From positions 103,239 to 135,238 of the forward strand of contig NJBF01000002.1 of the NCBI GenBank assembly GCA_003144275.1: a stretch of 32,000 nt of DNA. Reading direction: 5' to 3'. Numbering within the stretch: position 1 is the stretch's first letter; each line of letters starts with the position of its first letter. The notes under the pieces were generated by a model that did not search any database, had not been told where the DNA came from, and saw nothing but the letters and a program-made list of their open reading frames with translations. The translations under genes were made by a program, and so were the position numbers. Source of the stretch: Candidatus Heimdallarchaeota archaeon B3_Heim. GTDB lineage: Archaea > Asgardarchaeota > Heimdallarchaeia > Hodarchaeales > Hodarchaeaceae. Below, piece by piece: positions 88 through 25,361 of the stretch.

Positions 88-243
88 TCAAGCCACAAGT
101 AATTTCTGCTCCCCTTTTTCAAAGATTTCAATCTGTTTTTCCAGTGCTTCCCGTATAAACCCCGACCAGTTCATAAACTGATAGTTTTGCATCTTTGCTA
201 GCAGTTCCTCAGACACTCGTGTTGAGACCTGTCGATTCATCAT
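88..243 (-). CDS. Ribbon-helix-helix (CopG/VapB-like) DNA-binding protein, 51 aa (not in ORF track)
   Basis: Manual translation MMNRQVSTRVSEELLAKMQNYQFMNWSGFIREALEKQIEIFEKGEQKLLVA; beta-strand VSTRV, helix, and NWSxFIREAL typical of archaeal RHH proteins. Confidence 0.72.
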   Translation of the reverse strand: MMNRQVSTRVSEELLAKMQNYQFMNWSGFIREALEKQIEIFEKGEQKLLVA

Positions 244-429: not shown

Positions 430-1956
430 ATGGAAGTCAAAAGAATGGGTCTATTAAAGAAATTTCGGGAATTCTCCGCGAAAACCAACTTTTCTCGGAC
501 GAATTTTCCCAAAGTCAAGAAGGCATTTGCCTTCCTACTGTTCTTGGTTTTTGCAGTCCAAATCGTAGCCTTTGGCTCTTTTTTTACGCTTAATCTGACA
601 ACAAACCAAGCATTTGCTGTAAAATACGAGGAAACTGATATTCAGCAGTTCCTCGATAGTGACATACGTAACGTAACCGTGATTCTTGCTGATGCGAGCG
701 CGGTTGGTAGTGGTGCTAGGATAAGTAGTCCAATGACACTAACCCTCGACCGAATTGCCATACGGGCGTCTACGCTGCCGTACCACCCGAAAGCATTTCC
801 TACCTCATCCAGAATGTTACACAATATCTTCCCTACCTCCGAGTCCATTGCTCGTTTCGCGACTCTTCGGTCCTCCCTTGGAGGGGGTGGCGCATCATTT
901 CAGTCAATTGAAAGTATTAAAAGTATTGATGCCGTAAATGCGTTACTCAGTCTTGCGGAAGATACAAACGCTACTTCAGAATCAGTTGGCGAAAACACCG
1001 TTAGTGATGAGAAATTTGCGGTAGAAGACCTTAAAGCTGAGACCGAATACAATATTAATACTACTGCAGTGGTGACGGATCTAACCAGCCAAATCGGCTA
1101 TCTTGAAAATCAATCGGTTGAATCCGCATATCAAGACTATGCGAGTTTCCTCTATTCGAATGATAGTGTCGATGCGATTGCAGGGTCTGAAGCGGATGAA
1201 GAAAAAAATCATGATCTCTTGATTTCAGGATTTGACAACACAGAAGACGCGGTTTTAAGTATTTTGAAGTCGAATATCGCTGCTGATTATTCCACGGCTT
1301 CAAATATCTTGACAGCCGATGACGTAACGGTTGTGGATTATGCGGTCCATCATGCCAATATGACGAATTATCTTTCGTCCGCCCTCGTAGAAAAAGTGCG
1401 TGACGCCGTGACAGACTATGAAGACAGTCTTGAAGCGAATATCGCAGCCACAATTTTCGGTTTTAAAATCTACACTGCCAAAGCGGCTACCACTGCAGGG
1501 ATTCTTGCGGGTTTTCGCTCTGCCGTGGGTCGAGTGATTAGCTTTGGTCAAGCGGTAGTCAGTACTCCTCTGCGAGAGGTCAAAAAAATCGGTGGGAGTA
1601 TTAAACGCACCGTCACATCATACGCATCTAAGGTTGGTGAAGCTGGATCCAGCGCACTCAACATTGGAAAAGGGTTTCTAACGTCCGCTCTTTCGAAGCT
1701 GGGTTCAATTAGTAAGTCAATTGGCGATAAAGTGGGCAGTTTCGCTCAAAACGTTAAGGTGGGCGTCACTGGTGCTGTCAAAGGAGTCAAAGGCTTTGTA
1801 TCCAAAAGTTTCAATGCTGTCCTAGGCTCTGTAAAAAGCCTGTTCAGTTTCATTCCGATGCTAATTCTGCTGATGGTAGGTGGAGTAGGCGCGGTGCTAG
1901 TTGTAATATTCCTTATGAACCGTAAACGTGCCCCTCCTGAGGTAATGCCCTACTAG
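430..1956 (+). CDS. Putative envelope/spike-like membrane protein, 508 aa (signal peptide, acidic ectodomain, 11-mer amphipathic repeats, C-terminal TM)
   Basis: Hydrophobic N-terminal segment ending in AFA|VK; D/E-rich helical middle; G/S/A/K/V repeats with SKVG/SKLG/DKVG spaced 22 and 11 residues; C-terminal TM then RKRAPPEVMPY. Alternative start at 445. Confidence 0.6.
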   Translation: MEVKRMGLLKKFREFSAKTNFSRTNFPKVKKAFAFLLFLVFAVQIVAFGSFFTLNLTTNQAFAVKYEETDIQQFLDSDIRNVTVILADASAVGSGARISSPMTLTLDRIAIRASTLPYHPKAFPTSSRMLHNIFPTSESIARFATLRSSLGGGGASFQSIESIKSIDAVNALLSLAEDTNATSESVGENTVSDEKFAVEDLKAETEYNINTTAVVTDLTSQIGYLENQSVESAYQDYASFLYSNDSVDAIAGSEADEEKNHDLLISGFDNTEDAVLSILKSNIAADYSTASNILTADDVTVVDYAVHHANMTNYLSSALVEKVRDAVTDYEDSLEANIAATIFGFKIYTAKAATTAGILAGFRSAVGRVISFGQAVVSTPLREVKKIGGSIKRTVTSYASKVGEAGSSALNIGKGFLTSALSKLGSISKSIGDKVGSFAQNVKVGVTGAVKGVKGFVSKSFNAVLGSVKSLFSFIPMLILLMVGGVGAVLVVIFLMNRKRAPPEVMPY

Positions 1957-1983: not shown

Positions 1984-2886
1984 ATGCAAAATACTACACT
2001 CCGAAAAAGAAGAAGTCTGACAGTTTTTCCTGTCGTTTTTCTCTTTTTTCTCTCGGTTCTGGTGCCTGTGCTCGCGTCCCCCTATACTGCGGAAATCACC
2101 ACGCTCACCCCCACTATTGATACCTCGACCTCTTCAACCTATGAAAAAACCATTGGCGTGAAGCTGATCTGGCGGATCAATTACGATAAAAGCCTCGAGA
2201 ATTTTTCCACTATTTACAGCTATGTTTACTGCAAAGTGTCAGGCAAAAGCCCTATTTTAGCGGCGAGTCAAGTGACGGAAGGTGGATCTACTTATTGGTA
2301 TACCAATTATACCTCGATTACCGAGACCCTGACATTAAATATCGATGAAGACTCGGTGGCTGGGCAAGATCTTTCTTCCGATGTGAAGATTGCGATCTAT
2401 GCCGAACTCTACAATAATTCGATATCCGCGGCTAATAAGCTAACTTCCAAGACCGCATCGATTTCCTATGGCAGTTTAGTGGGAGAAGAAGCCGCTGAGA
2501 CCGCTGACAGGGGTCTCTGGGATTATGCGCTTTTAATCCTCATGGGTCTCGGCGCATTCGTAGTGCTCGTGTTTATCATCCTGGCTGGACAGCGGTATGT
2601 CATACCATGGCTAGGCTTAAGTTCCCCTCCCCGTAATACGTTAGATTATGGGGATCGAACAAAATGGGCTGAGCGGTATGGCCCTCGTGACAAAGAAGTT
2701 CTACAGGGTAAAAAGAAAGCTGGACAGTTCAAAGACATCGTTGATCCAGGACGCTCTCGGCGTATAGACCAGAGACAAACGCATCTTCACGGGAGAAAAC
2801 CAGGGCAACTGCGACGATCACCTTCGAATCCCCGCAAAAAGATTCCTGACGCGGACCGACGTCCTCCGAAAGGGAAAAAGTGGTAA
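1984..2886 (+). CDS. Type I membrane protein, 300 aa (signal peptide, S/T-rich beta ectodomain, TM, basic cytoplasmic tail)
   Basis: Signal VLA|SP; beta-strand pattern suggesting an Ig-like fold; TM LLILMGLGAFVVLVFIILAG; tail begins YVIPWLGLSSPPR and is K/R/P-rich. Confidence 0.65.
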   Translation: MQNTTLRKRRSLTVFPVVFLFFLSVLVPVLASPYTAEITTLTPTIDTSTSSTYEKTIGVKLIWRINYDKSLENFSTIYSYVYCKVSGKSPILAASQVTEGGSTYWYTNYTSITETLTLNIDEDSVAGQDLSSDVKIAIYAELYNNSISAANKLTSKTASISYGSLVGEEAAETADRGLWDYALLILMGLGAFVVLVFIILAGQRYVIPWLGLSSPPRNTLDYGDRTKWAERYGPRDKEVLQGKKKAGQFKDIVDPGRSRRIDQRQTHLHGRKPGQLRRSPSNPRKKIPDADRRPPKGKKW

Positions 2887-3454: not shown

Positions 3455-4093
3455 ATGGTCGAGAACACAACTATCATTTTAGTATTAGCGATAGGAGGTC
3501 TTGTTCTCTTATATTTTCTTCTCTATATCCCTTTCACGCGAAAAGTCGCCTGGAAAAGTGTGGTCATTCCTGCTACGACCTTGAAAAACATGCGAAATAA
3601 ACGGAAACAGCGGGCAGAGGTGGCGTATGTCTTCGATTTCAATCACCAACAAAACCGAGCTGAACGCATTCGCTTTCGCAGAGGCACTCGCGATTTTGTC
3701 ATTCCCCGTGCTAATTGGGATGACGAAGTGATTTTTCATACGCATAATAAAGTCAGCAACCCTGTAGAGAATGTTCTGCGGGAACGACCTTCGGGAGGCG
3801 ATCTTGTCCAACTCATCAGTTCGCCTCGCCTCCAAGATGGGCTGATTACCCCCTCAGGGCGGCTTCTCATCTATGAAGAAACCTCCCATACGGATCCTCG
3901 GAAAGTCAAACGGCTCGATCAAAAAGAGGTCGAGATTCAAAAACGGGTATTTCGGAAAGAAGTTACTCCCACAAAAGCGAGGGAAGTGAATAAACGTTTT
4001 TTGAGCGAAGTGAAGAAAGCGGGGATTCGAGTGCGTGAAGTCTCCCCGAATCAGGCATTGAAATTGAGAACAGAGGTACGAGAACATGGTTGA
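3455..4093 (+). CDS. N-terminally membrane-anchored basic protein (array member)
   Basis: Single N-terminal TM IILVLAIGGLVLLYFLLYIPF then K/R-rich soluble domain; overlaps next gene. Confidence 0.75.
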   Translation: MVENTTIILVLAIGGLVLLYFLLYIPFTRKVAWKSVVIPATTLKNMRNKRKQRAEVAYVFDFNHQQNRAERIRFRRGTRDFVIPRANWDDEVIFHTHNKVSNPVENVLRERPSGGDLVQLISSPRLQDGLITPSGRLLIYEETSHTDPRKVKRLDQKEVEIQKRVFRKEVTPTKAREVNKRFLSEVKKAGIRVREVSPNQALKLRTEVREHG

Positions 4094-5666
4094 CTCATTA
4101 CTCGTTATTGGTGGATTATCAGGAGGAGTCATCCTAGGACTAGTTTTGCTCTGGCTGTTAGGGAAACCAGTTTTTTCCTTACCGCTACTCGCGGCTCCTC
4201 GGTGGACAAAAAAACACCTTTACGTCATCGCTCAGCAACATAATATCAAGAATCGGTCCAAGATGTCTCGAGACGCGTTGTTACGAAAAACTCGAGGATT
4301 AAGACCCCGCTATCCCCCAACAAAAATCCCTTCACGAGTTCAGAAATTATCAGTTAAACCCCAAATCCGACCAAAACGTCGCCCAAAACAACGGGGTTTT
4401 CACAAGGGAATGGATCTTCATACCTGGGTAGTGGAGAGAAATAGACACTTGAAGGAAATTGAGAAAATTAAAGAGCCTCAAAAACGGATTCAAGCGGTGA
4501 ATAAGCTTCAAAAAAATGCGGACAAATATAGTCAATCCTCCTGGATGACGCCTGACAATCCGTATGCTAGAGTCCGTAGAGATGCTAAACGAGAGATCCA
4601 ACAGCATAAGATTGAGGTAAAACAACGAGCTAGAATAACTACTATTAAGACGGAAAAAGACCCTGAACAGATTCTCAAATTCACTGATGAAGAATATAAA
4701 ATCTGGTTGAATGCTCTGTCGGCTAAAGACCGTGAACACTATCCTCATTCCCATCATGCTTACATGAATAATTATTATCTGTATGAAAATCCCAAGAAAA
4801 TCAAATATCGGTTCATGGATACAGGTCTTTCGGCCAAAGAAGCGGACTATCAGGTTTTCTTAACAGGAAAAGAGGAATGGGAGCGACAAAGATATCCTAA
4901 ACGTGTAATTGAATATGAAAAAAATCTGCGCTTATATAAAGATGGGCGGATCGCCAGGTATCGCCCCAAGGATAAACAACCTCGGGCCAGTGATATGAGC
5001 ACAGCCACCCCTGACAAACGAATCGACGCCATAGTTGAAGGAAAAGCCATTCGGGGAGCTACGCGAGAAGAACGACGCATTGCTCATGATATTCGGAAAG
5101 CAGGGGAAACAGGCGCTAAATTTGGTACGGGAGGATTTTTGAGTAAACGGCAGAGTCAAATTACAAAACTCACGGCTGAAGAACGTAAGCTTGTCAAACG
5201 AGGGATGACTCCGATTCAAGCGAGACGATTCACCGAAAGAATCCAAAGTGCGGGGGCGGATCTTCAAACCATAGACTTACGTTCGTTAGATATCGAGTCT
5301 CAGGAGGGAATGGAAGGCTATATGGAAACACTCGCGTCAGATCAGTGGGAGGCAGCATTTGGAGGGGTGTATGGTCCCCAAAAACGTTTCAAAATTCTTC
5401 CTGCCAAGTTTGCACCTAAAGTTGTATTTCAAAACCTCGGGTGTGGGAAAGGCTCAATCATGGCCGTAGTTGAAGATCAGGGCGATTATTCACAACAACT
5501 GATAACCAAGGCGACCTACCAAGTAAAAGAAGCGGAGGCGGAAAACTTGGGCGATGGGACTATCATGGTTAAAGGAAAAACCAAAGGCAATCAGGAATTT
5601 AACCATTTTGTGCAAACGACTGACAGTTTAGAGGGAATCAAGAAAAAAGTAAGGAAAACAAAGTAA
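4086..5666 (+). CDS. Membrane-anchored multidomain basic protein with Rho_N/HeH-like module, 526 aa
   Basis: N-terminal TM, then LPLLAAPR, then WTKKHLYVIAQQHNIKNRSKMSRDALL matching the Rho N-terminal-like pattern (TKxELYxIAxxxxIxGRSKMSKxEL); remainder unrecognised. Confidence 0.7.
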   Translation: MVDSLLVIGGLSGGVILGLVLLWLLGKPVFSLPLLAAPRWTKKHLYVIAQQHNIKNRSKMSRDALLRKTRGLRPRYPPTKIPSRVQKLSVKPQIRPKRRPKQRGFHKGMDLHTWVVERNRHLKEIEKIKEPQKRIQAVNKLQKNADKYSQSSWMTPDNPYARVRRDAKREIQQHKIEVKQRARITTIKTEKDPEQILKFTDEEYKIWLNALSAKDREHYPHSHHAYMNNYYLYENPKKIKYRFMDTGLSAKEADYQVFLTGKEEWERQRYPKRVIEYEKNLRLYKDGRIARYRPKDKQPRASDMSTATPDKRIDAIVEGKAIRGATREERRIAHDIRKAGETGAKFGTGGFLSKRQSQITKLTAEERKLVKRGMTPIQARRFTERIQSAGADLQTIDLRSLDIESQEGMEGYMETLASDQWEAAFGGVYGPQKRFKILPAKFAPKVVFQNLGCGKGSIMAVVEDQGDYSQQLITKATYQVKEAEAENLGDGTIMVKGKTKGNQEFNHFVQTTDSLEGIKKKVRKTK

Positions 5667-5676
5667 AAGAAGGTGA

Positions 5677-6150
5677 ATGAAAATATCTAGCTATTCAGAG
5701 GTAATATTAGTATTTGCGATTTTTGGTGTGGGTTTTCTAGCACTTGTCCTTCTGTGGAAATTGAAGAATCCTCATCAATCAATTTTATACTTGCCCGGAG
5801 TTCCGCGCATTTTTGCGCCCAGGTTTCATTATGACGTTTCAAATTTAACTCGTGAGGAATTAGAGTCTCGATTTCGTCAGGAGACAGGGCTGACGGGCGT
5901 TTATGCTGATAAAGAAAAACGCCGGCGATTATCGAGAATTTATATCCAGCGTGAGAGAGAGGCGCGTCTCGGGAGACGGACTCAACAATTTCAACCAAAC
6001 CAGACCTCTGTCGAAAGAATGGGTCTTCCTAAAGTGGATAACGAGACTATGGAAATGTCCAGGATTAATATCACGTGGAAACAAAAAGCAGCAGCGCCTC
6101 GTGTTCTCCACAAATTGTCCAGAATACAAAGAAGAAAGGAGTTGAAATGA
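5677..6150 (+). CDS. N-terminally membrane-anchored basic protein (array member)
   Basis: TM followed by LLWKLKNPHQSILYLPGVPRIFAPR; GGTGA upstream. Confidence 0.75.
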   Translation: MKISSYSEVILVFAIFGVGFLALVLLWKLKNPHQSILYLPGVPRIFAPRFHYDVSNLTREELESRFRQETGLTGVYADKEKRRRLSRIYIQREREARLGRRTQQFQPNQTSVERMGLPKVDNETMEMSRINITWKQKAAAPRVLHKLSRIQRRKELK

Positions 6151-6151
6151 A

Positions 6152-6628
6152 ATGGTTGGTGCAGTAGAACTAACAATTATTGTGGGCTTAGGGTTAGCTG
6201 GTCTCGCGGCATTACTTCTTTTATGGAAGTTACAACATCCGCAGAGTAAGATGATGATTCAGATTCCAGGGCTTCCTGTCATGCTTGCCCCGAGTAGATC
6301 GGAACGTTTCAAACGCTTTGCAGGAAGTACGGCTAGACATGGTTATGGGACAGTCCAGGAGGTTCGCAAAACAGATGAATATCGCCGTCTTCTGAACGTG
6401 AGTTCATCCAAGGCAGCGGAAGGCTCCTCACGCGTCATTCTAGAAGAATTTCATCAATCCCCTCGAAAGGACCAGGTTCGGATGAAACGCATGGTGTATT
6501 TAGCGTCTCAATCCGCCGCTAAAGGGTCTAGGAGTGAGCGGTTTTCCCCCGACACGCGTACTAAACTCGCGGATATCGCGACCGTTTATCAGGAAACCCA
6601 TCGAGAAATGCGGGTCAAACCCAAATAA
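6152..6628 (+). CDS. N-terminally membrane-anchored basic protein (array member; leader paralogous to 5677)
   Basis: TM followed by LLWKLQHPQSKMMIQIPGLPVMLAPSR; C-terminal part unrelated to 5677. Confidence 0.75.
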   Translation: MVGAVELTIIVGLGLAGLAALLLLWKLQHPQSKMMIQIPGLPVMLAPSRSERFKRFAGSTARHGYGTVQEVRKTDEYRRLLNVSSSKAAEGSSRVILEEFHQSPRKDQVRMKRMVYLASQSAAKGSRSERFSPDTRTKLADIATVYQETHREMRVKPK

Positions 6629-6665
6629 AAAGGAAAACATGAATAATAGGAGTTGATAATTAATT

Positions 6666-7133
6666 ATGGTAGAGGTTAAGGATTTAGTTATCATAGCTGG
6701 CTTAGCCATTGCTGGTATAGCCCTGTTTTATCTCGTTCAGTGGTATATAACTTATCGCAAGTTCAAACAAGGGTTCGATATTGGCATGACTATCGCTCAA
6801 GACGAGCGAACACAGACTGGCTTACGATCAGTTTCTGATCGTTTCAAACACTTCACCGCCAAAAATAATCCCCTTCGTGCTTCTCGGCAACGGTTGATTC
6901 AAGCCCCTCGTGTTCTGATCGATAATTTAACGAGAACAGAGCAAAGAAAATTGAGAAAGGAAACCCGAGAATTCGTAAAACGTACTGATCCTAACTGGCA
7001 AAATTACTCGACTTTAGGAAAGCAAAGGGCAATAACGGCAGAGGCTAATAGAAGATTAAACCCCCGACATATTTCTGCTCAATTTGAATACGATCTCAAA
7101 AGAGAATATGACTTGATCAATAGAAATAAATGA
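6666..7133 (+). CDS. N-terminally membrane-anchored basic protein (array member)
   Basis: TM LVIIAGLAIAGIALFYLVQW; internal LIQAPR; R/K-rich. Confidence 0.75.
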   Translation: MVEVKDLVIIAGLAIAGIALFYLVQWYITYRKFKQGFDIGMTIAQDERTQTGLRSVSDRFKHFTAKNNPLRASRQRLIQAPRVLIDNLTRTEQRKLRKETREFVKRTDPNWQNYSTLGKQRAITAEANRRLNPRHISAQFEYDLKREYDLINRNK

Positions 7134-7142
7134 GCCGGGGGC

Positions 7143-7376
7143 ATGATTCCTATCCCTGATCTGTGGAGGGAAATGAAAGATCAGGGTTATACCCGATCAG
7201 AATTTGAGCGAGAATTATTCCGTTTGGAGAACGAACGGACAATTGACATACAAACTGCGTCTCAACCACGCTTTATATCTGACTCTGATCGAAATCTAGG
7301 CATCCCTCATCAAAGACGAGGGCATTTGAATTATGTTCTCTTCCGATACAATCCCAAAAAACCAATGAGGCGATAA
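7143..7376 (+). CDS. Small winged-helix-like protein
   Basis: IPIPDLWREM..TRSEFERELFRLENERTIDIQ has helix-helix-strand spacing of wHTH modules; no TM. Confidence 0.5.
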   Translation: MIPIPDLWREMKDQGYTRSEFERELFRLENERTIDIQTASQPRFISDSDRNLGIPHQRRGHLNYVLFRYNPKKPMRR

Positions 7377-7388
7377 TCCGAAGGTGAT

Positions 7389-8537
7389 TTGATGTTCGAC
7401 CGAATCAAGACTTTTCTACCAACGATATTTGTCGCACCCAAAGTAAGGAAAATAACCAGCCGCCAGAAACCATTATCTGACTTTTTCCGCCGTTCTTCTG
7501 ATCAAAGAAATCCTGTGACTCGAACCCTTCAGAAAATCCGAAATGATCTAACTAAGGAAGATCAGAAAGAAGTAGTTATTCCCCAAAGAATTAAAGCTGA
7601 TTCATTATTAAAACAAGCTAAACAGATTAAACTAAAATCAGATGAACGATACTATGTTTTTTATGAAAATGACTATACTCATCGCCCTCAAATGACTGAT
7701 AAAATAGCTCGATTACCAGATAAAATTAATGAGTCGAAATATCGATTTAATTTGAGATGGAAAGGAAAGAAAGAACCTGCTTTAGTTATTATTGCCGCTT
7801 CCAATGCGTCTGAAGCGAGGCGAAAACTCGCGGATCGCGGAAAAATTGATGTCCTTCTTACAGATACCGAATATAAAGATCGTAGAGAGATTAGAAAATT
7901 CGGGTTAAAATCTTATTATGAAGATGGGCAGTTTATTGGGTGGAGAGGCAAGATTAATCCGAAAATCTGGCAAGAAGTAACCAAATTTGGCCAGTTAACA
8001 CAAGGTTCCGAATATTCAGCTGAAGAAAGTGCCGAATCTTGGCGGGGCAGAAGATCGAAGAAAGCCCAAATAAAGCGTGACCAAGCGACCAAGGCAACAC
8101 AGCGATCTAAAGCGCATTGGGATGAAGCGACAAAGCTAGGAAAACAAATTCCTCTTGGTCAACCTATTTTAGTCGGTCATCATTCTGAAAAAAGACATCG
8201 GAGACATATCGAAAGAATTGATAGCCATGGCTTTAAAGGACTAGAAGAACACAGAAAAGCTGAGCGTTTAACAAGACAGGCTGAAAACTTAGAATACATG
8301 GCGAGACAGAAAAAAGGGATAGCTGCACAACAACATGAAGCTCATAGAGATACAATTCGACGACGTGTTAAACAAGGGAATACTCGAATATTCTTTCATG
8401 GAGCTGCTTATGGTGAGGGAACGGTGACTAAAGTATTCAAAAAATCTGCGAGAGTTAAATTTGATAAATCTGGCTTAGAAACCACAATTGATATGAATTT
8501 ATTACAACCCGTGAATGGTTCAAAAATAAAGAATTAA
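7389..8537 (+). CDS. DUF3560-containing protein with C-terminal SH3/Tudor-like barrel
   Basis: IPLGQPILVGHHSEKRHRRHIERI is the DUF3560 signature; C-terminal HGAAYGEGTVTKVFKKSARVKFD; N-terminus MFDRIKTFLPTIFVAPK has the array motif without TM; AGGTGA upstream. Confidence 0.75.
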   Translation: MMFDRIKTFLPTIFVAPKVRKITSRQKPLSDFFRRSSDQRNPVTRTLQKIRNDLTKEDQKEVVIPQRIKADSLLKQAKQIKLKSDERYYVFYENDYTHRPQMTDKIARLPDKINESKYRFNLRWKGKKEPALVIIAASNASEARRKLADRGKIDVLLTDTEYKDRREIRKFGLKSYYEDGQFIGWRGKINPKIWQEVTKFGQLTQGSEYSAEESAESWRGRRSKKAQIKRDQATKATQRSKAHWDEATKLGKQIPLGQPILVGHHSEKRHRRHIERIDSHGFKGLEEHRKAERLTRQAENLEYMARQKKGIAAQQHEAHRDTIRRRVKQGNTRIFFHGAAYGEGTVTKVFKKSARVKFDKSGLETTIDMNLLQPVNGSKIKN

Positions 8538-8570
8538 AGTAACCGTATCAAAATCTCCGAGGTAAGCGAA

Positions 8571-9464
8571 ATGGACACCTGGACCATCATCCTATTGCTA
8601 ATGTTCAGTTTATTGATTATTCTTCTTTTACTATTATTTTTCTCTAATCCGAATACTACCAGTATTTTGGGGATCCCTTTTCAGTTATTTGAAGCCCCTC
8701 GAAAGGTAGCAATCGGGGCGGTTAGACGCATTCGAAAGCGCAATTATATCGGCACAGGGGAATATTCAGAGGCGTTTTTAGTTGATGATATGGTTGTTAA
8801 ACGGAACCGAGAAAGGTCTTATTATAATCCCCGTCTCTATAAGAGAAGAGAATTTCTCAAAAAGTCCAAGGAGGAGATGAGTGGTGAATACAATCTCTAT
8901 ACACAATTAAAAAGTAAAAATTACACGCTGTTGCCTGAATGGATGCACCAATATCAGGGCACTAATGCTCGGTATTACTTGATCCGTGAACCCGCGAAAA
9001 TTCCTCTTCAGGAGGGCCAAGAAAAAAAATGGTTCCCTCAATGGCGAAAAAATGCTGTTTCACAAAAAGCATACAATAAATTCTCCCTAGAATTGTTTCA
9101 GATTGCTAGGGATCATGGACATTTTGAAGATCGACTTCAGCCTGGATTGCGAGAAGATGGCTCATTATTCCTGTATGATTTAGGTCATTTTAAAGTGCGA
9201 GAGACCCTTGGCCATGATCCTGAAGAGAGGGAATGGAAACGCCTGGAAAGCTACTATACAACAATGAATCGTCTAGATGGGTTGAGTGAACAAATCGAGC
9301 TTCCCTATACGATTCCTGACTTTGTCATCAATGATCATATTGGTTATTATAAAAGGGAAATCAGAGAACGAAAAGCCAAGGGCTATCCTAAAGGGATGCT
9401 TGAATATCACCAAAACGAACTTCAGAGATGGGAGCGAGTGAAACAGACGAAAGAAATAAGTTGA
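8571..9464 (+). CDS. Membrane-anchored protein-kinase-like protein
   Basis: N-terminal TM + SILGIPFQLFEAPRK; Gly loop YIGTGEYSEAF, VVK lysine, E in MSGEYNLY, then HFEDRLQP and LYDLGHF (DFG-like). Confidence 0.55.
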   Translation: MDTWTIILLLMFSLLIILLLLLFFSNPNTTSILGIPFQLFEAPRKVAIGAVRRIRKRNYIGTGEYSEAFLVDDMVVKRNRERSYYNPRLYKRREFLKKSKEEMSGEYNLYTQLKSKNYTLLPEWMHQYQGTNARYYLIREPAKIPLQEGQEKKWFPQWRKNAVSQKAYNKFSLELFQIARDHGHFEDRLQPGLREDGSLFLYDLGHFKVRETLGHDPEEREWKRLESYYTTMNRLDGLSEQIELPYTIPDFVINDHIGYYKREIRERKAKGYPKGMLEYHQNELQRWERVKQTKEIS

Positions 9465-10232: not shown

Positions 10233-11042
10233 GTGTCAATGATAATTGAAGACTTAACAATTTTAGGCCGAGCTGCACCTGATTTAATGAAAAGTAAAAT
10301 GGTTAAAACATTTTGTGTTGCAGGATATTCTCCATCTAGGGGTTTCATTAGAGTGTATCCTACGTCTATTGATTGCCCTATGAAATTTTGGAACGTTGTT
10401 AGGGTTCCATTAGAGCGAAATCTTCAAGATAGTAGGTTTGAAAGCTGGAAAATTCAAGGTTCAAAATCCGAATGGGATAATCTTGATAGTAAAATCGAAG
10501 AAATTGGTACATATCCCAAAAAAGAAAGACGACAACTTGTTTTCAATCTTGTTGATGGTTGCCGTAATGATATTAACGATGCCCATAGGAGTTTGGGAAT
10601 TATTAAGCCCACAAAAATTAAGGGTTACTTTCAGGAACGAGAAAAAATATCAGAAAGCGAACAAAAAACTCTTTTAGACTTTTTAGATATTCCAAAACCT
10701 AAAAATCATTGGATTAAAACAAAAGCTGAATATCAATTCATACCTTATATTAAATATACTTGTTCTGACTGTAAATCCAAGCAAGGGTATCATAATCAAC
10801 AATTGCTTTCTATTGAAGCTTACGAATGGATGCGGAAACACCCTGATAATCTTGATCAACTTTGGGAGAATTTTCGAATCAATGATAAAGATTACGATGC
10901 ATATTTATTCATTGGTAATCAAGCTCGTCGTCGAAACGCGTTTATGGTAATTAGTATTTTGAGATTCAAAAAATCTAATTATTCATTGTCACGGACAAGA
11001 CCATTAATCCCTTGGAAAAAAGTAGAAAAACCCAAATCATAG
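10233..11042 (+). CDS. OB-fold-like protein of a family I associate with DUF488 loci (CxAG...IRxYP...DxRxES), with Cys/His cluster
   Basis: TFCVAGYS..GFIRVYP, VRVPLERNLQDSRFESWKI, SLGIIKP, YTCSDCKSKQGYH. Confidence 0.55.
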   Translation: MSMIIEDLTILGRAAPDLMKSKMVKTFCVAGYSPSRGFIRVYPTSIDCPMKFWNVVRVPLERNLQDSRFESWKIQGSKSEWDNLDSKIEEIGTYPKKERRQLVFNLVDGCRNDINDAHRSLGIIKPTKIKGYFQEREKISESEQKTLLDFLDIPKPKNHWIKTKAEYQFIPYIKYTCSDCKSKQGYHNQQLLSIEAYEWMRKHPDNLDQLWENFRINDKDYDAYLFIGNQARRRNAFMVISILRFKKSNYSLSRTRPLIPWKKVEKPKS

Positions 11043-11176
11043 TTGTAAAAAGGATCTTCAGACGGTCTTTAAAGAAGATGGATTGGCAAATTGTGAGTCG
11101 TCGCCAAACAAAAGCTCTAGATGATTTTTTAAATAATTCTAAACGAGAAATTAGAAGAGGAAGTGTGGTATCAGGA

Positions 11177-12250
11177 ATGAGAATTAAAATTACAAATATA
11201 GTTATACCGTGGTATGCACCACGTGAAGAAGTTGATAAGGAATTTCTTGGTGAATTAGCTGTAAGTATGGATAAGGATGGGCAATGGGATGATATAATCC
11301 TTCGTCATAATGAAGCTGGGGAATATGAACTCATCTCAGGTTTTCAAAGGCTTAATGCTGCGAAATCTTTGAAGTGGGAAGAAATTAATGCTAAAGTTCT
11401 CGATATAACAGAGAATGATGCAGCAGTTATGGCGTTAGAAAGTAATATTCTTCGTAGAGGATTAAAAGAGATTGAAGAAGGGAAAGCAATTCAGAAAATG
11501 ATTGACAAATATGGATATACACATAAACAGGTTGCAGAGAGATTAAGAAAAAGCCAAAACTGGATTAGTAATAGACTATCTTTGGCAATGGATATAACAG
11601 ACTTAGTAAAAAAGGCTATGATTGATCAAAAACTATCTGTTACTCAAGCCATTGAAATTGGAAAACTTTCAAAAAAAGACCAAGATAAATTTTTGGCCAT
11701 TGTTCTTAAGAAAGTTGAAGAAAACGATGGGAGGCCAATTTCTGTAGAAGAAACTAGAATTCTCCGTAAGCGTTTTACAAATGATACTATTTTTACAATT
11801 GGTTATAGTGGATGGGACATTGATGATTTTTTAAACACACTTAAAGATAATAAGATAGGTGTTTTAGTTGATATTAGAGAAAGTACAAAGTCCCAACGAA
11901 AACCTGAATTTAGTGGACGATTATTAGAAAAAAGAGTTAAGGAACTTGGTATAAAATACTTCGGTAGACCACAACTAGGGGTTCCTTGGGATATCCGTGC
12001 GGCAGTTTTTGAAAATGGCTTATCGTCTAATTGTTTTAAAGAATGGTACATTTGGCACGTTACAAAAAGAGACGAGAAAAACAAAGCATTTGAAACAGCC
12101 AGAGAATTAAAAGATGTTGGAGCTCCCGCTTTCATGTGTATGGAACGTTATCCAAAACCGAGCGGAAAACAGGAACATTACTGTCACCGTGACTTTTTAG
12201 CTGAATTGATACTAAAGGAACAAATCTTTGAGAAACGAATCGATTTATGA
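11177..12250 (+). CDS. ParB/Srx N-terminal + HTH + DUF488 fusion protein
   Basis: ParB core (ELAVSMDKDGQWDDIILR..YELISGFQRLNAAKSL..ALESNILRRGL), HTH (YTHKQVAERLRKSQNWISNRL), DUF488 (IFTIGYSG..FLNTLK..LVDIRE..RKPEFS..LG..FMCME..CHR). The ORF track start at 11012 is probably too early. Confidence 0.85.
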   Translation: MRIKITNIVIPWYAPREEVDKEFLGELAVSMDKDGQWDDIILRHNEAGEYELISGFQRLNAAKSLKWEEINAKVLDITENDAAVMALESNILRRGLKEIEEGKAIQKMIDKYGYTHKQVAERLRKSQNWISNRLSLAMDITDLVKKAMIDQKLSVTQAIEIGKLSKKDQDKFLAIVLKKVEENDGRPISVEETRILRKRFTNDTIFTIGYSGWDIDDFLNTLKDNKIGVLVDIRESTKSQRKPEFSGRLLEKRVKELGIKYFGRPQLGVPWDIRAAVFENGLSSNCFKEWYIWHVTKRDEKNKAFETARELKDVGAPAFMCMERYPKPSGKQEHYCHRDFLAELILKEQIFEKRIDL

Positions 12251-12294
12251 AATACATAATTCAATTTTGTTAATTGAAAGATTTTCCTTACAAA

Positions 12295-12543
12295 TCATCT
12301 CTCCCTTTTTTTTAATAACTCAATCATTATCTCAATCTGTTCTTTAAATTCTTCTAGCATTTCTGAACTTAACATTTCTTCTGATTTCCTTAAACGTATA
12401 TCCATTAGTCTCTCATAGCATCTAAAAATTAAAAAAAAATCATATATTGAATTCCATATCCCCTTTTTAATAAAATACCGATCGTTGTAATTTATTAGTT
12501 TTCTTAGAGTGTTTAATGGAAGATCAGGATCACTATCAATCAT
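12295..12543 (-). CDS. Hypothetical protein
   Basis: Open frame with ATG at 12543; no recognisable motif. Confidence 0.4.
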   Translation of the reverse strand: MIDSDPDLPLNTLRKLINYNDRYFIKKGIWNSIYDFFLIFRCYERLMDIRLRKSEEMLSSEMLEEFKEQIEIMIELLKKRER

Positions 12544-12585
12544 TTTTAATTTCTTTCTTGTAGTAGATCTAAGCAAGTTTTCTTA

Positions 12586-12634
12586 CCTCATCAAATGTGT
12601 TGAGGCATTAATTACCTCATCGATTGTGTTGAGG
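12586..12634. promoter_or_regulatory. Tandem palindromic sites CCTCA-N10-TGAGG x2 (putative operators)
   Basis: CCTCATCAAATGTGTTGAGG (12586-12605) and CCTCATCGATTGTGTTGAGG (12615-12634), 18/20 identical, in a divergent intergenic region. Confidence 0.55.
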
Positions 12635-12767
12635 TAATACTAAAAAAACGTTATGGTATCAATTTTCAAATTTTGAATAAAAAATATTCAACTTCATTAT
12701 TCAGTTCTTCTTATAAAAGAAAGGATCTTAAAATTGAATAGAGGAATAAAGGATTTGAGGGTTTTTC

Positions 12768-13367
12768 ATGGGATTAGATCTCTTTTTTTATCCTGAAGAG
12801 TTTGAAGGGCCATTTGTAGTTCTTGGTAAAGGCGAAACAAGATATGATAAGAGATTTCATCAATTCATTTCCTGTATGATAGTTTTAGATAGTAATCTGA
12901 ACTTAGTGAGATTATTTCCTATTGATATGGAGCGCTTTTCAACTTTTAAGGAATTTGATTTTGTTAAAGTAAGAATTGAAAAAAGGAACTACGAAAGCCA
13001 TAGACCAGAGACAAGAAAAATTTATCCTTCTACAATTAGATATTCCAAAGAAACGTTTCATTTCACTCTTCCCTTTGAAACAGGAGAAGTTCTACATGAT
13101 GGTAATTGGAAGAAGATGCACCGTTCTGTTGCCTTGATAAATCCACGAGAATTAAGAATAAGACAAAAATGGAATGAATATACTCGAATACAATACTTCT
13201 GTGATTTTGAGGGATGCAATGGGCATACAAACAAACTAGATGCATATACTTTTGAACAAGTGGCCGCTTTAGAAAGAGAAAATACAGCTATTGGTTTTGT
13301 TTTAGGTACACATGCAGGATATCCTCATAGATGGTTATTAGTCTCTGCAATACGAGCAGAAAACTAG
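12768..13367 (+). CDS. Divergent paralog of the 10233 OB-fold-like protein
   Basis: Collinear motifs VLGK/ILGR, VRLFP/IRVYP, HRPETRKI/SRFESWKI, SVALINP/SLGIIKP, YFCDFEGCNGH/YTCSDC..GYH, FVLGTH..WLLVS/LFIGNQ..FMVIS. Confidence 0.6.
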   Translation: MGLDLFFYPEEFEGPFVVLGKGETRYDKRFHQFISCMIVLDSNLNLVRLFPIDMERFSTFKEFDFVKVRIEKRNYESHRPETRKIYPSTIRYSKETFHFTLPFETGEVLHDGNWKKMHRSVALINPRELRIRQKWNEYTRIQYFCDFEGCNGHTNKLDAYTFEQVAALERENTAIGFVLGTHAGYPHRWLLVSAIRAEN

Positions 13368-13694
13368 CATAACCATATAAAAGATTCCTAGAAAAATTCT
13401 GGACCTAAAGTATAACATTCTTCTCAAAATTTTTAAATTATAAAAACTCTCCTTCTTCCTCTCCAATACTTCTTCGAATCCCTTTCCCATTATTCCAAGA
13501 GGGGGGAGGGAGGGAAGTTGATCCTGTAAAAATTGAATGAAATTCAAAAGAAACCTGTGACCAACTTCCACATAATGACGTTTTTCCTCTTATATAAACA
13601 CCTCAATAAAATTATAATGGAATAACCACTCTTTCCTATGGAAAATTATTTATAGGGCAATTTTCGTTCTAGCTGTTAGAACGGAAGCGATTTC

Positions 13695-13823
13695 ATGAGT
13701 GGAAGTGCAAAACTCGCTTATCTCGAACATCTTAGACAGGAAGAAAAGCTTCGGAAGCGAGAAGCCTATTGGGAAAAAATTTTTGCTCAAGCTCCCCCTC
13801 CAGCTAAGAAATCGAAATCCTAA
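13695..13823 (+). CDS. Small helical protein, 42 aa (not in ORF track)
   Basis: Manual translation MSGSAKLAYLEHLRQEEKLRKREAYWEKIFAQAPPPAKKSKS; more protein-like than the overlapping track ORFs. Confidence 0.45.
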   Translation: MSGSAKLAYLEHLRQEEKLRKREAYWEKIFAQAPPPAKKSKS

Positions 13824-13863
13824 TCTTCCCTTTCTTATTCTGAAAAAATCCAAGGAGTTTATT

Positions 13864-14355
13864 TTAGGGTTCAGTAGCAAATGGATCAATATAGGAGAGA
13901 ATATTATCTCTTTTCAGGGAATAATCCTCAAGAAGCTGCATAATCGTGATACTCTGAACACCTCCAAAATGAAGAAGGAATCTATGTTGTAAAAAGCGTC
14001 TTCGCGCCTCGCTAAATCCTTGAGGAGATATTAAAAAAGCGTATCGTGTATTAAATACCTCTGCATACATTTTAATTTGATAAATATCTGCAATTTTCAA
14101 TTCTTTATTTTTTACCTCAACAACGACTAAACGCTTATCTATAAAGCCGCTTTCTGATGGAACAAGCACATATCCCATAAGATCAGGTTTTTTATCCTCT
14201 GTCTCCAAAATGAACACTGAATGATCATCTAAGATCTTTTTAATCGAATCCTCAATTTTTTTGGAAGTAATCTCTAGAAAACATTTACCTATATTATTAA
14301 ATTTCTCCTCTAAAGCTTTCTTAATCGGCTCATAAAGTGCTTCTTCTTTTATCAT
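13864..14355 (-). CDS. PD-(D/E)XK restriction-endonuclease-like protein
   Basis: EEALYEPI..KPDLMG..VVEVK..IYQIKMY..YAFLIS: PD..ExK plus QxxxY motif. Confidence 0.7.
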   Translation of the reverse strand: MIKEEALYEPIKKALEEKFNNIGKCFLEITSKKIEDSIKKILDDHSVFILETEDKKPDLMGYVLVPSESGFIDKRLVVVEVKNKELKIADIYQIKMYAEVFNTRYAFLISPQGFSEARRRFLQHRFLLHFGGVQSITIMQLLEDYSLKRDNILSYIDPFATEP

Positions 14356-14382
14356 TTTTTTTTTCCTCTTAAGAGTCCTCTT

Positions 14383-14844
14383 TTAAAAATCATATTTCAC
14401 AAAATCAAATTCAGCAAAATTACGTTTAACTAATTTATTCAATTCGTTTCCAAAAGCATTAATGTCTTCTATTGGATTTATTAATTCTCCTCTTCTTATT
14501 AACTCCCAGATTGCTTGAGCAACATCATTCATTCGATTAATAATTGCAATTGATGGAGCCGTTAGATGAATACCTCTTGCAGAAAGATCGCCAAAATCAT
14601 CTCGAATAGGAATGAAAATACCTCCTTTTGTTGGAGGAATCTGTCGATTTGCAAATACAATACCTGGAAGATCTATTATAATTCTTCCAGAGACTTCGGC
14701 AATGATTTCGTCAATATCAGGGATATGAGAATAGAAAATATTCACCTTATCAGGTGGTCCAAAAATACCCAAAGTGAAGGTCTTTGCTATTTTCTTTCCT
14801 TTTGTTTTTAAAACAGTAATTGGATATTGTGTCCTATTAACCAT
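14383..14844 (-). CDS. Hypothetical protein
   Basis: 153-aa ORF co-oriented with neighbours; no motif recognised. Confidence 0.65.
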   Translation of the reverse strand: MVNRTQYPITVLKTKGKKIAKTFTLGIFGPPDKVNIFYSHIPDIDEIIAEVSGRIIIDLPGIVFANRQIPPTKGGIFIPIRDDFGDLSARGIHLTAPSIAIINRMNDVAQAIWELIRRGELINPIEDINAFGNELNKLVKRNFAEFDFVKYDF

Positions 14845-14855
14845 AATTAATCACT

Positions 14856-17846: not shown

Positions 17847-18117
17847 TTTTTGCTCATTCCCAACTAAAATCCTCAAAAACAAGTGATTTCACGGATCTCA
17901 TTGGAAATTAATAAATCTATGGGAGTTTCCGAAAAGCAAAAACAAATTATAACTTGTAACAAAGAAGTGGAAACACTATGCTTGCACATGCTTTTTCAGG
18001 AGCATAATGACTGTAGAGACAAGACTCACTTTCGAGTATCTCTCTCATTCTGTGTTGAACTCATATACCGCTTGAATGTAGGTTTGTCTGGTAATTAAGA
18101 GTTGAGAGGCGAGAAAC

Positions 18118-18387
18118 ATGGCCATTATTCTGGAAAAGAGTCACTATAAATATATGAGCAAGAAAAGTATCCGGGAGCATTTCGTTAAACGCTTGAATGA
18201 AACTTATACTGAGTTCACACTTATACAAGAGTTATACTATAGCAAATACAACCAGAGACTTTTCAGATCTGATGAGAAAAAGATTCTCAGGAAAATGTTA
18301 TTGGAAATTCGCCGGTTACGGGCAACCATAGAGCTTAATGATCAAAATGCGTCTTTGCGTCGGATGGTTCCGAGGGAAAAAGTATGA
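18118..18387 (+). CDS. Hypothetical helical protein
   Basis: GAGAGG upstream; ATGA overlap with next gene. Confidence 0.6.
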   Translation: MAIILEKSHYKYMSKKSIREHFVKRLNETYTEFTLIQELYYSKYNQRLFRSDEKKILRKMLLEIRRLRATIELNDQNASLRRMVPREKV

Positions 18388-18767
18388 ATTCTACGCATTC
18401 TAAAAGAAACGCGAAGATACTTAGCTTAAGTAGTTCCAAAGACATGCTTGAATGTGATCATTGTGAATATGTCGCTCATTGTGATTTAAAAGGACCGCAG
18501 GATTCCGTTTGTCCTCATTCTTCTAGTTTTGACCAGAATGAGAATCATTTCCAAGAAACAGATTTTACAGACCGTCGTTATAAAGAAATTAAACTAATTA
18601 AATTACCCTCCAAAGCAGAAGAAATTACTTTGAAAATGACTGCAGGAGAAATCAACATCCTGGAATATGCAGCCTATCAATTAGAGATTTCTTTGGAAAG
18701 ATATCTTGAAGTTACATTTAGACTAGAAGTAGAAAGAGTTCAGAGAAAATATGGTATTAAATTATAA
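18384..18767 (+). CDS. Cys-rich N-terminus + C-terminal RHH-like domain
   Basis: CDHC..HC..CPH; ITLKMTAGEINILEYAAYQLEISLERYL fits RHH strand-helix-helix pattern. Confidence 0.5.
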   Translation: MNSTHSKRNAKILSLSSSKDMLECDHCEYVAHCDLKGPQDSVCPHSSSFDQNENHFQETDFTDRRYKEIKLIKLPSKAEEITLKMTAGEINILEYAAYQLEISLERYLEVTFRLEVERVQRKYGIKL

Positions 18768-18777
18768 CGGAATGTGA

Positions 18778-19563
18778 TTAGACATGAATTGTTGTTGATC
18801 CATTTTGATTTAATTCCCAAATTTTTTTTCCAAAACGCTCACGAATATATGTCTCGTCTTTCCCACCTCTTAAAGAAACCTTTTGAACATTAAAACGTGT
18901 TTTTGGGGTTGGATTCCCTGAACTAGTTAACCGTAATAGATTTACACCAGTTCTTCTGGCAAAAGCTCTTTGTTCTGGTGAATAGTTTGTGTTTCCTTGG
19001 AAATATGCAGCAAAAAATAGCTTATCAATAAATGATGGGTAGCCAAAGATTTGTCTGATTTTTCTGTAAAAAGACTTATTATCAACCTTTGCCTCAATAG
19101 CCCAAAATTCATATTTAGATTGATTTTTTCTTCTTTCTAGTAGACCTACACCAAGGATATCTATCTCAATTCCTTCTTTTTCTCCTGGATATCTAAAATT
19201 TATCTTTGAAAGTAATCTTAAATCACGAAACGGAGGTTTCTTATGTTTCATTTCAGACTTTAACCAAGTTTTCAATGAAGATAATAACCAATCTTCTTGT
19301 ACAATACCTTCTAATTTTCCTCTATAGAACTTAAATATTCTTTTTTCAATATTATCTAATTTAACTTGTTTATTTTTTAAACTCATTTCTCGGAGAAAAT
19401 CTTCAAGTTCAGTCATTGTATAATTAGATCGTGTCATTTCCTTTTTTAAAATTGGGAAGATTCTTGGCAAATCTTTTCTTAAATCATCCTTTTTTAATTC
19501 AAATTCCCTCTTTAGATTATGAAGTAATTCCTTATAACTTTTTACCATCACAGGATCCTTCAA
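18778..19563 (-). CDS. PD-(D/E)XK nuclease-like protein with N-terminal coiled region
   Basis: EDWL..IEIDILGVG..WAIEAK..IDKLFFAAY..GVNLLRL. Confidence 0.65.
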   Translation of the reverse strand: MKDPVMVKSYKELLHNLKREFELKKDDLRKDLPRIFPILKKEMTRSNYTMTELEDFLREMSLKNKQVKLDNIEKRIFKFYRGKLEGIVQEDWLLSSLKTWLKSEMKHKKPPFRDLRLLSKINFRYPGEKEGIEIDILGVGLLERRKNQSKYEFWAIEAKVDNKSFYRKIRQIFGYPSFIDKLFFAAYFQGNTNYSPEQRAFARRTGVNLLRLTSSGNPTPKTRFNVQKVSLRGGKDETYIRERFGKKIWELNQNGSTTIHV

Positions 19564-19590
19564 AACTCTCAGATCGTCTTCTAATTAAAC

Positions 19591-19818
19591 TCATTTTTTA
19601 CTCTTCTCCCCTTCTCTTCTAGCTTTTATTTTCTCTAAATGATGTTGTTCCTCTAATTTAATTAGATTAATTGTTGCTATATGTACAAATTTTGCTTTAT
19701 TTCGGTCATAAGCATCAGAAATTTCAGGAAACTCTTCAAATAATCTATCTAAACGTTTTTGCATTGATTTCGGAAGATTTGGCCTGTAATATTCAACTTT
19801 CTCTGTAGTTTTTTGCAT
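19591..19818 (-). CDS. Putative RHH/CopG-like repressor
   Basis: YYRPNLPKSMQKRLDRL..NKAKFVHIAT; transcribed divergently from the early operon. Confidence 0.5.
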   Translation of the reverse strand: MQKTTEKVEYYRPNLPKSMQKRLDRLFEEFPEISDAYDRNKAKFVHIATINLIKLEEQHHLEKIKARREGEKSKK

Positions 19819-19856
19819 GTAAAACGCTTTTGAAGTAGAACTATTAATTAATAATT

Positions 19857-19923
19857 TGTCTAATATCTGTCATATATTCGAGGTTAGTTTTATATATGTC
19901 TAATAACAGGCATATATTAGACA
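19857..19923. promoter_or_regulatory. Twin operators TGTCTAATA-N9-TATTAGACA in divergent promoter
   Basis: Perfect 9-9-9 palindrome at 19897-19923; degenerate copy TGTCTAATA-N9-TATTCGAGG at 19857-19883; TATA-like TTTATATA between them. Confidence 0.65.
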
Positions 19924-19940
19924 GTTATTAGGTGTCTTTA

Positions 19941-23858: not shown

Positions 23859-23867
23859 GGACGAACG

Positions 23868-24128: not shown

Positions 24129-24155
24129 ATCTAACCAAGACTAGGAGGAAGTCAA

Positions 24156-24574: not shown

Positions 24575-24577
24575 TCA

Positions 24578-25357: not shown

Positions 25358-25361
25358 CTAA

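Follow-up and report, generated by a model that had tools for sequence, protein, structure and literature searches.

A rare predicted type-I surface glycoprotein with a long hendecad stem, encoded in a conserved membrane-protein module of an Asgard archaeon

The locus described here raises the question of whether an Asgard archaeon encodes a membrane fusogen, or an envelope protein of some other kind. It lies in a 32,000-nucleotide stretch of the genome of Candidatus Heimdallarchaeota archaeon B3_Heim (assembly GCA_003144275.1, contig NJBF01000002.1, positions 103,239 to 135,238 of the forward strand; order Hodarchaeales), referred to below as the window. An open reading frame (ORF) at 430-1956 (+) of the window predicts a protein of 508 amino acids, the target protein of this report, which a sequence-only reading had put forward as a novel fusogen or envelope protein with 11-residue amphipathic repeats. 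The envelope-type part of that proposal holds: columns of conserved glycosylation sequons, lysine and arginine residues directly after a C-terminal transmembrane (TM) helix and a fixed place in a module of membrane-protein genes support the reading of the product as an outward-facing type-I membrane glycoprotein. The claim of membrane fusion is unsupported; none of the specific fusogen features proposed is conserved in the family, and there is no heptad signal and no fold match, the last with a poor structural model. We consider it about an even bet (probability roughly 0.5) that the target protein serves as principal surface glycoprotein to a membrane-bearing, integrated and so far undescribed element of Asgard archaea, provirus-like or vesicle-forming, and that its stem rests on the outer leaflet of the membrane.

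Type-I surface glycoproteins of archaeal mobile elements are a kind of protein already known. What is new is the family to which the target protein belongs, which is rare and without annotation. Its distinctive conserved feature is a very long, tethered stem of hendecad (11-residue) repeats combined with a constrained AP...PY tail.

Gene structure and domain layout

The target gene, predicted to encode a type-I membrane glycoprotein, occupies 430..1956 of the plus strand, stop codon included. It is identified by the ORF list, by purifying selection and by a family of 18 representatives. Two relatives of the target protein at about 62% identity were found in public assemblies, and comparison with them gave omega values of 0.10-0.16 at saturated synonymous divergence (dS), indicating purifying selection. 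The public gene call begins at M6 and yields a protein of 503 amino acids. V29 was rejected as an alternative start: it has the codon GTC, which leaves no nearer start.

Hydropathy and charge profiles bore out the layout noted from the sequence, with a signal-like N-terminus, an acidic ectodomain, a C-terminal TM helix and a short tail. Residues 1-31 have a net charge of +8 and precede a putative signal peptide or signal anchor (residues 32-63; 523..618, +), which was recognized by a Kyte-Doolittle peak of 2.42 and by the family alignment. Its hydrophobic core spans about residues 32-57, and this is followed by a candidate cleavage site after A63 (AFA↓VK, residues 61-65). The acidic ectodomain (residues 64-335; 619..1434, +), with a net charge of -28 and conserved sequons at N81, N180, N210, N244 and N310, is predicted to be of alpha/beta type by AlphaFold2. 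It is followed by a hinge (residues 336-370; 1435..1539, +), delimited by the family alignment and hydropathy, which comprises an IFGxK hairpin, a variable linker and a first amphipathic helix. The internal G/A-rich segment that had been remarked on is present in this part of the protein, as IAATIFGFKIYTAKA...AGILAGF at residues 338-362. The membrane-proximal stem (residues 371-472; 1540..1845, +) consists of hendecad amphipathic repeats defined by hydrophobic moment, autocorrelation and residue registers. It leads into the C-terminal TM helix (residues 473-496; 1846..1917, +), which has a Kyte-Doolittle peak of 2.96 and in the family alignment often opens with [FYI][IL]P. The protein ends in the tail NRKRAPPEVMPY (residues 497-508; 1918..1953, +), predicted to be cytoplasmic or particle-internal from the basic residues after the TM helix and delimited by its conservation in close relatives. 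Cys and Trp are both absent from the sequence.

Signal region and ectodomain

The N-termini of the family, complete in 14 of the 18 members, share a common plan: a short basic segment comes first, then some 20 hydrophobic residues, and lastly a polar segment that ends in small residues. Directly after this signal region there is a conserved acidic E/D-x-D motif, and the predicted mature N-terminus of the target protein, VKYEETDIQQF, is likewise acidic. A cleaved signal is plausible from these alignments. The site first proposed, AFA↓VK, would be suitable for signal peptidase, the column having a conserved small residue, but a rival candidate at the end of the hydrophobic core, [AG]-x-G↓S, is as well conserved.

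Six sequons of the form N-x-S/T fall within residues 65-335 of the target protein, and two others are found in the signal region (N20 and N55). In the family alignment, where identity is only about 25-30%, the sequon columns at N81, N180, N210, N244 and N305-310 are occupied in 16-18 of the 18 relatives, and a sixth column, at N286, is occupied in 12. The retention of these columns argues strongly, if indirectly, that residues 81-310 lie outside the cell and are N-glycosylated.

The amphipathic stem

The hydrophobic moment of the 102-residue stem peaks at 98-99 degrees, which corresponds to 3.67 residues per turn, or 11 residues in three turns. This moment was not reached in any of 2000 shuffled sequences (z 6.5-6.9), and autocorrelation of hydrophobicity is highest at lag 11 (z 3.9), with a further maximum at lag 22 (z 2.6). 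The 11-residue amphipathic repeats described earlier are therefore far above what shuffled sequences produce, and the reported spacing of 22 and 11 residues between SKVG, SKLG and DKVG is exact, the three motifs starting at residues 400, 422 and 433. Positions a, d, e and h of the repeat (spacing 3-1-3-4) carry V, I, L, F and A in a register that runs for about 90 residues; the opposite face is made of S, G, K and T and is nearly free of acidic residues. The overall composition of residues 371-472 is S 16%, G 14%, V 13% and K 12%, with a net charge of +12. A coherent moment is seen in 18 of 18 family members (96-101 degrees, z 2.6-9.4), and the net charge of the stem ranges from -7 to +20 among them. 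As judged from the alignment, the selected feature of the stem is its amphipathicity and not its charge.

With a polar face of Gly, Ser and Lys and an apolar face rich in Val, the stem is closer in composition to 11-mer helices that lie on lipid surfaces than to soluble coiled coils. The 11-mer repeats of alpha-synuclein, apolipoproteins, perilipins and LEA proteins resemble the stem in keeping the hendecad over many turns, in having Lys in the flanks or polar face together with small Gly, Ser and Thr residues, and in the Val-rich apolar face. They differ in that these proteins are soluble, cytosolic or secreted, and bind reversibly, whereas the repeats of the target protein are tethered between an ectodomain and a TM helix; nor does the target protein belong to any of these families in Pfam. 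A likeness in placement is offered by the stem-anchor region of flavivirus E, in which amphipathic helices between the ectodomain and the TM segment lie flat on the outer leaflet, and which is the model we have in mind for the stem. The E stem is about 50 residues long compared to 100-130 in the target family, however, its ectodomain is beta-rich and disulfide-bonded whereas the target protein has no Cys, and no homology was detected.

In a structural variant of our interpretation, the stem would form a coiled-coil stalk of the hendecad type in an oligomeric spike and keep the ectodomain clear of the membrane. The canonical a/d/e/h register over some 90 residues would suit such a stalk, and right-handed hendecads occur in archaeal surface stalks such as tetrabrachion. 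We nevertheless consider this variant very unlikely, given a Gly content of 14-19% and high Ser across the family, the scarcity of acidic residues on the polar face, the presence of 1-6 prolines in the region of each member, and AlphaFold2 confidence of only 24-31 in the stem.

Topology and the C-terminal tail

Residues 336-370 were considered as a possible TM helix, a candidate that was rejected for too low a hydrophobicity and a lack of sequence conservation. In the family alignment G344 of the IFGxK motif is invariant, but it is followed by a variable linker, often containing Pro, and then by an amphipathic helix; a conserved hydrophobic TM segment between the ectodomain and the stem was not found in the family. 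Because residues 336-370 are too polar and too variable to cross the membrane, the stem is predicted to lie on the ectodomain side. At the other end, K and R residues cluster directly after the C-terminal TM helix in nearly all family members, as expected of the cytoplasmic side. Together, the conserved sequon columns, the retained stem and these basic clusters support a type-I topology with both ectodomain and stem outward. A cytoplasmic location of the repeats, which would have spoken against an envelope protein, is thus not what the family alignment indicates, since the stem shares the side of the ectodomain.

No other part of the protein is as constrained as the tail, in which 11-12 of the 12 residues are identical among close relatives despite saturated synonymous sites. 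Across the family, tails extend 12-40 residues past the TM helix, several have an AP or Pro-rich stretch just after it, and 10 of 18 end in PY (for example MPY, RPY or QPY). It should be noted that the juxtamembrane AP motif of the target tail resembles the AP[R/K] found after the N-terminal anchors of the basic proteins encoded downstream (window 4086-9464), on the same side of the membrane. In a search for archaeosortase and exosortase sorting signals (PGF-CTERM and its kin), no NCBIfam model reached its cut-off; the best score, for LPxTATN in one relative, was 14.9 against a required 32 bits.

Size and distribution of the family

When 1.84 billion cluster representatives were searched exhaustively with HMMER, a family of 18 proteins was obtained, 17 of them with E <= 1e-10. 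All come from metagenomes, most are 450-545 amino acids long and align end to end, and none has a name or a Pfam domain. The sequence profiles of Pfam, NCBIfam, PHROGs and PDB contained no significant match for the family, and neither the whole target protein nor residues 330-508 matched Pfam at E values up to 10. Its occurrence is sporadic: a search of 399 other genomes from this phylum, 21 of them belonging to the same genus, did not find the family and gave only weak matches to the low-complexity stem. There was no tblastn match in 50,697 phage and archaeal-virus records. Two short peptide patterns detected no relative in IMG/VR, pattern scans of GTDB species genomes and JGI metagenomes gave no confirmed relative, and no further members came from a word-indexed search in which the family alignment was the query. 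Sequencing runs listed as containing the target included no RNA runs; one small marine-sediment DNA run (2011) contains 13% of its words. At least one other carrier is a related archaeon, because the host SMC protein encoded at locus L008 is closest to that of the genus of the window, with 39-41% identity; with other families in the phylum the figure is about 28-31%.

Among the sub-threshold matches were some that could suggest a pore-forming, lytic or tape-measure-like protein, with Gly-rich amphipathic helices that act in release or DNA ejection. Residues 250-476 weakly match tail tape-measure families of PHROGs (E about 1e-3 to 2e-3), and relatives show weak matches to SseC and PSM-beta (E > 0.2). 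These matches are compositional and far from significant, no tail genes are present in the module described below, and conserved sequons and an ectodomain of 270 amino acids are alien to holins and tape measures; we regard a function of this kind as extremely unlikely.

Predicted fold and the case for membrane fusion

AlphaFold2 models of the monomer reached a mean pLDDT of 31.9 with three sequences and 48.8 with all 18. In the latter, the ectodomain is predicted to be mixed alpha/beta, with pLDDT of 70-80 in parts. Comparison of the ectodomain by Foldseek with PDB and BFVD, by exhaustive VIA-align and by an ESM Atlas shape search gave no fold match, although a model with a mean pLDDT of 48.8 excludes no fold; the searches returned only single-helix or noise matches. 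The structural comparison suggested by the sequence-only reading therefore pointed neither to a fusogen nor to a known non-fusogenic fold at this model quality. An ESM Atlas feature search with the target protein gave no usable match.

On binding, a true membrane fusogen would be expected to rearrange its ectodomain, insert a hydrophobic segment into the target membrane and zip its stem back so that the two bilayers merge; the fusion could be between virus and cell, or between cells with transfer of the element, as has been proposed for archaeal Fsx1. The supported outward topology suits such a role, the membrane-proximal amphipathic region recalls the stem or membrane-proximal external region of viral fusogens, and the membrane-anchored internal proteins of the element would need fusion to enter a new cytoplasm. 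The two segments originally assigned to the fusion process are not conserved, however. AGILAGF, proposed as a fusion peptide, is replaced by STDFSLSRF in a relative of 62% identity (P0003) and by charged amphipathic sequence with D, E or K in distant members. The cleavage site TAKA↓A, which was thought to expose it, is kept only in the three closest sequences. Class I fusion proteins differ from the target family in both respects: the family has no conserved cleavage-exposed fusion peptide, the corresponding positions being charged or occupied by Pro elsewhere, and the only long helical region of the target protein has the 98-99 degrees and lag 11 of a hendecad rather than the 102.9 degrees and lag 7 of a heptad. 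Class II fusogens and fusexins (HAP2, EFF-1, Fsx1) have disulfide-rich, beta-rich ectodomains, whereas the target protein lacks Cys and is predicted to be mixed alpha/beta, and no match to their fold was obtained with the poor model available.

The closest parallel is with the pleolipovirus spikes. VP5 is a monomeric type-I spike that mediates fusion and has a Gly-rich membrane link and a hydrophobic mature N-terminus (PMC6381117). Like VP4 of HRPV-1 and VP5 of HRPV-2 and HRPV-6, which have about 500-570 amino acids, a signal of about 30 residues, an outward ectodomain (N-glycosylated in HRPV-1), a Gly-rich link and a single C-terminal TM helix (PMC6381117), the target protein combines a signal, an ectodomain and a C-terminal anchor in a chain of similar size. 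In both cases the gene belongs to a small archaeal element capable of integration and has genes for small membrane proteins and an ATPase as neighbours. This likeness in topology and size, on which a role in fusion could be based, does not extend to sequence. The 18-sequence profile aligned with HRPV-6 VP5 and HRPV-1 VP4 at an hhalign probability of 0.1% (E 0.55-0.64), and Foldseek against PDB and VIA-align gave no ectodomain match to the V-shaped two-domain fold of VP5, although a model with a mean pLDDT of 48.8 does not exclude that fold. The 102 residues before the VP4 and VP5 anchors have no coherent amphipathic moment (z 1.2 and -1.4, compared to 6.9 in the target protein). VP5 is nearly tailless with a hydrophobic N-terminus, whereas the target family has an acidic mature N-terminus and a conserved tail of 12-30 residues, and the hosts are haloarchaea in one case and an Asgard archaeon in the other. 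Fusion by the target protein, conceivable by analogy with VP5, is in our view improbable.

A conserved module of membrane-protein genes

The target gene occupies a fixed place in a module that recurs with the family. Directly 3' to it in the window is a gene for a second type-I membrane protein (1984..2886, +) of 300 amino acids, whose predicted topology comprises a signal, a Ser/Thr-rich ectodomain, a TM helix at residues 182-200 and a basic tail of 100 amino acids. It is always found 3' of the target gene, and homologues lie directly 3' of the family gene in L002, L004, L006, L009, L020, L023, L024 and L025. A third gene (3455..4093, +) encodes a protein of 212 amino acids with an N-terminal membrane anchor and no Pfam family, which has the same position in L002, L004, L006, L020, L023, L024 and L025. 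The triad formed by the target gene, the gene for the second type-I protein and that for an anchored protein of about 215 amino acids is present in all eight loci that have a downstream flank (the seven just listed and the window).

Further 3' in the window, L002 and L004, there are genes whose products are very basic, are anchored at the N-terminus and have an AP[R/K] motif next to the membrane; parts of these proteins recur in L006, L020 and L023. One basic membrane-anchored protein, encoded at L002:5978-7042, contains a fusellovirus VP2 domain (PF25632, E 7e-10, above the Pfam cut-off) and is partly homologous to window 4086-5666, 6666-7133 and 7143-7376. The VP2 family consists of virion DNA-binding proteins.

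Sister loci L006, L020 and L024 also share a set of genes 5' to the family gene, which encode a giant surface protein, a multi-TM protein of about 460-520 amino acids, a protein of about 175 amino acids and a P-loop ATPase of about 620 amino acids. The same four genes are found in the genome of the window, 9-15 kb 5' of the target gene. In the sister elements the ATPase and family genes are adjacent, unlike in this genome, where a block of about 8.6 kb (G000:C80:94600-103100; L005:6600-15100) is inserted between them. It consists mostly of accessory genes on the minus strand and includes an AAA_21 ATPase gene, a rhomboid-like gene and, on the plus strand, a PIN_8 gene. The giant proteins encoded upstream, of 1711 and 1781 amino acids, are acidic type-I surface proteins, of which the longer carries a basic tail and 56 sequons. 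The ATPase, of 622 amino acids, has a helix-turn-helix region and a possible PD-(D/E)XK end. It could be assigned to no family, and its likeness to Zot-like viral ATPases is an ESM Atlas lead only (score 0.80).

Integrase genes accompany the family in two loci. L024, which carries two tandem family paralogues of 473 and 490 amino acids with 38% identity (L024:8537-11473), ends at a tyrosine integrase (L024:14400-15497) beside host genes, and an integrase also adjoins the family gene in L008.

These gene contents bear on the main alternative to our interpretation, in which the target protein would be an envelope protein of the element that stays on the host surface and serves in adhesion, in mating-pair contact for DNA transfer or in superinfection exclusion, with no released particle. 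The two giants and the multi-TM protein, together with an ATPase whose end may be a nuclease, would fit a contact-dependent DNA transfer apparatus, a capsid gene is not recognized, and the elements are integrated. However, VirB4, TraG, a relaxase and Ced/Ted-type components were not detected by Pfam or PHROGs, and a row of very basic anchored proteins, one of them with a VP2 domain, fits the packaging of a particle better than a channel. The tandem duplication in L024 is typical of receptor-binding proteins, yet compatible with either interpretation. On balance, we judge a purely host-surface role to be rather unlikely.

Small Asgard-associated elements with some of the same features are the wyrdviruses and NMV3, which have a large adhesin, conserved genes of unknown function and a P-loop ATPase without TM helices that has been likened to pI/Zot of filamentous phages (10.1101/2021.07.29.453957; 10.64898/2026.08.12.739948). 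They share with the element of the target gene a general logic only, to which the weak ESM Atlas lead for the 622-residue ATPase, pointing to pI/Zot, may be added; they differ in that a spindle-type (His1/SSV-type) major capsid protein is not recognized in the element described here.

A probable surface glycoprotein of a membrane-bearing element

The interpretation that we prefer, with the target protein as the main surface glycoprotein of a membrane-bearing element of the virus or plasmid-vesicle type, draws on the constrained gene, the outward topology, the retained stem and tail, the recurring module with its VP2-domain and STIV_B116-like genes, the sporadic occurrence of the family and the raised local G+C content. 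In it, the N-terminal signal would direct insertion of the protein by the Sec pathway. The ectodomain (residues 64-335), acidic and of alpha/beta type, would face outward, N-glycosylated at the conserved sequons, and would probably contact the target cell, perhaps with a role in entry. The stem of about 100 residues may lie flat in the outer leaflet beside the C-terminal anchor, in the manner of the flavivirus E stem helices. Acting as a wedge in this leaflet, it could stabilize or impose outward curvature and keep the ectodomain near the bilayer. The AP...PY tail, facing the cytoplasm or the interior of a particle, might then dock internal partners of the element, namely the basic membrane-anchored, probably DNA-binding, proteins and the ATPase module, and so allow incorporation of the target protein into particles.

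Several observations weigh against this interpretation. The element is known here from its genes alone, and among these neither a capsid nor a portal gene nor that of any other hallmark virion protein was recognized. The architecture of the target protein would equally suit a protein that stays on the surface of the host cell. Among close relatives the ectodomain is better conserved than the stem (69-70% as against 52-57% identity), which is unusual for a fast-evolving receptor binder, and the ectodomain model matched no fold. Hendecad periodicity also marks straight or right-handed coiled-coil stalks, not only stems that lie flat on lipid, and both the cleavage of the signal and the glycosylation are inferred from the sequences.

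A bolder version of the same interpretation concerns particles that bud. In the accounts of Asgard-associated viruses cited here, the particles are tailed, icosahedral, spindle-shaped or rod-shaped/filamentous, and none of these is enveloped (10.1101/2021.07.29.453957, PMC13700489, 10.64898/2026.02.13.705702, 10.64898/2026.08.12.739948). The element could in principle form an enveloped, budding virus-like particle, the first from Asgard archaea of the Hodarchaeales type, in which the stem would drive curvature or fusion and the AP...PY tail would act as a late-domain-like assembly signal that couples membrane-anchored nucleoproteins, and perhaps host membrane remodelling, to budding. We hold this to be distinctly improbable. 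The genome encodes the ESCRT-I component Vps28, which agrees with its Asgard placement. A search of the genome for WW domains gave no match, and neither did its controls.

In a host lineage that is reportedly the closest to eukaryotes, this conserved type-I surface protein and its very long stem of the lipid-surface kind are signs of a membrane-bearing element not described before. If particles exist, the target protein would be a handle for finding them, and if our interpretation is true it would provide a test case for proteins that bend or merge archaeal membranes. The stem by itself would be a compact model of a tethered 11-mer curvature element.

Other genes and flanking regions

A divergent gene for a protein of 51 amino acids (88..243, -) precedes the target gene. 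It is a likely, weakly supported, ribbon-helix-helix regulator, with homologues upstream of the family gene in L002, L004 and L023 and a counterpart in L007 that has a weak RHH_12 mark; the copy in the window has no Pfam match. The upstream half of the element, 9-23 kb 5' of the window at G000:C80:79895-94554 (L010:11895 to L005:6555), contains the two giants, the 522-residue multi-TM protein, the 175-residue protein and the 622-residue P-loop ATPase. Directly before the giants is a gene for a protein of 105 amino acids with two hydrophobic helices (L010:11581-11898; G000:C80:79581-79898) and a sub-threshold Pfam match to 8xMP, which could be a capsid-like or membrane structural protein; a faint 8xMP match is also found near the family gene in L008. 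The element that carries family member P0005 includes a STIV_B116-like gene (L006:19858-20235), which belongs to a DNA-binding family of crenarchaeal viruses.

A search across 67 kb found no att-like direct repeat of at least 19 bp, and a crude scan of the metagenome-assembled genome for clustered regularly interspaced short palindromic repeats (CRISPR) returned only a leucine-rich repeat gene. Locally, a block of 9.4 kb has a raised G+C content of 0.44-0.455, compared to about 0.30-0.38 in its flanks. The region of lower G+C content 3' of this block (window 10233-29025) encodes a ParB-DUF488 fusion (11012-12250), an ORF of 1008 amino acids on the minus strand (14856-17882), an HNH endonuclease, a radical-SAM-like protein, an N6/N4 DNA methylase (25362-26129) and a tyrosine integrase (28234-29025). 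It may be either one composite island or several elements. Located 3' of this region is a host-like Fe-alcohol dehydrogenase gene (30551-31732).

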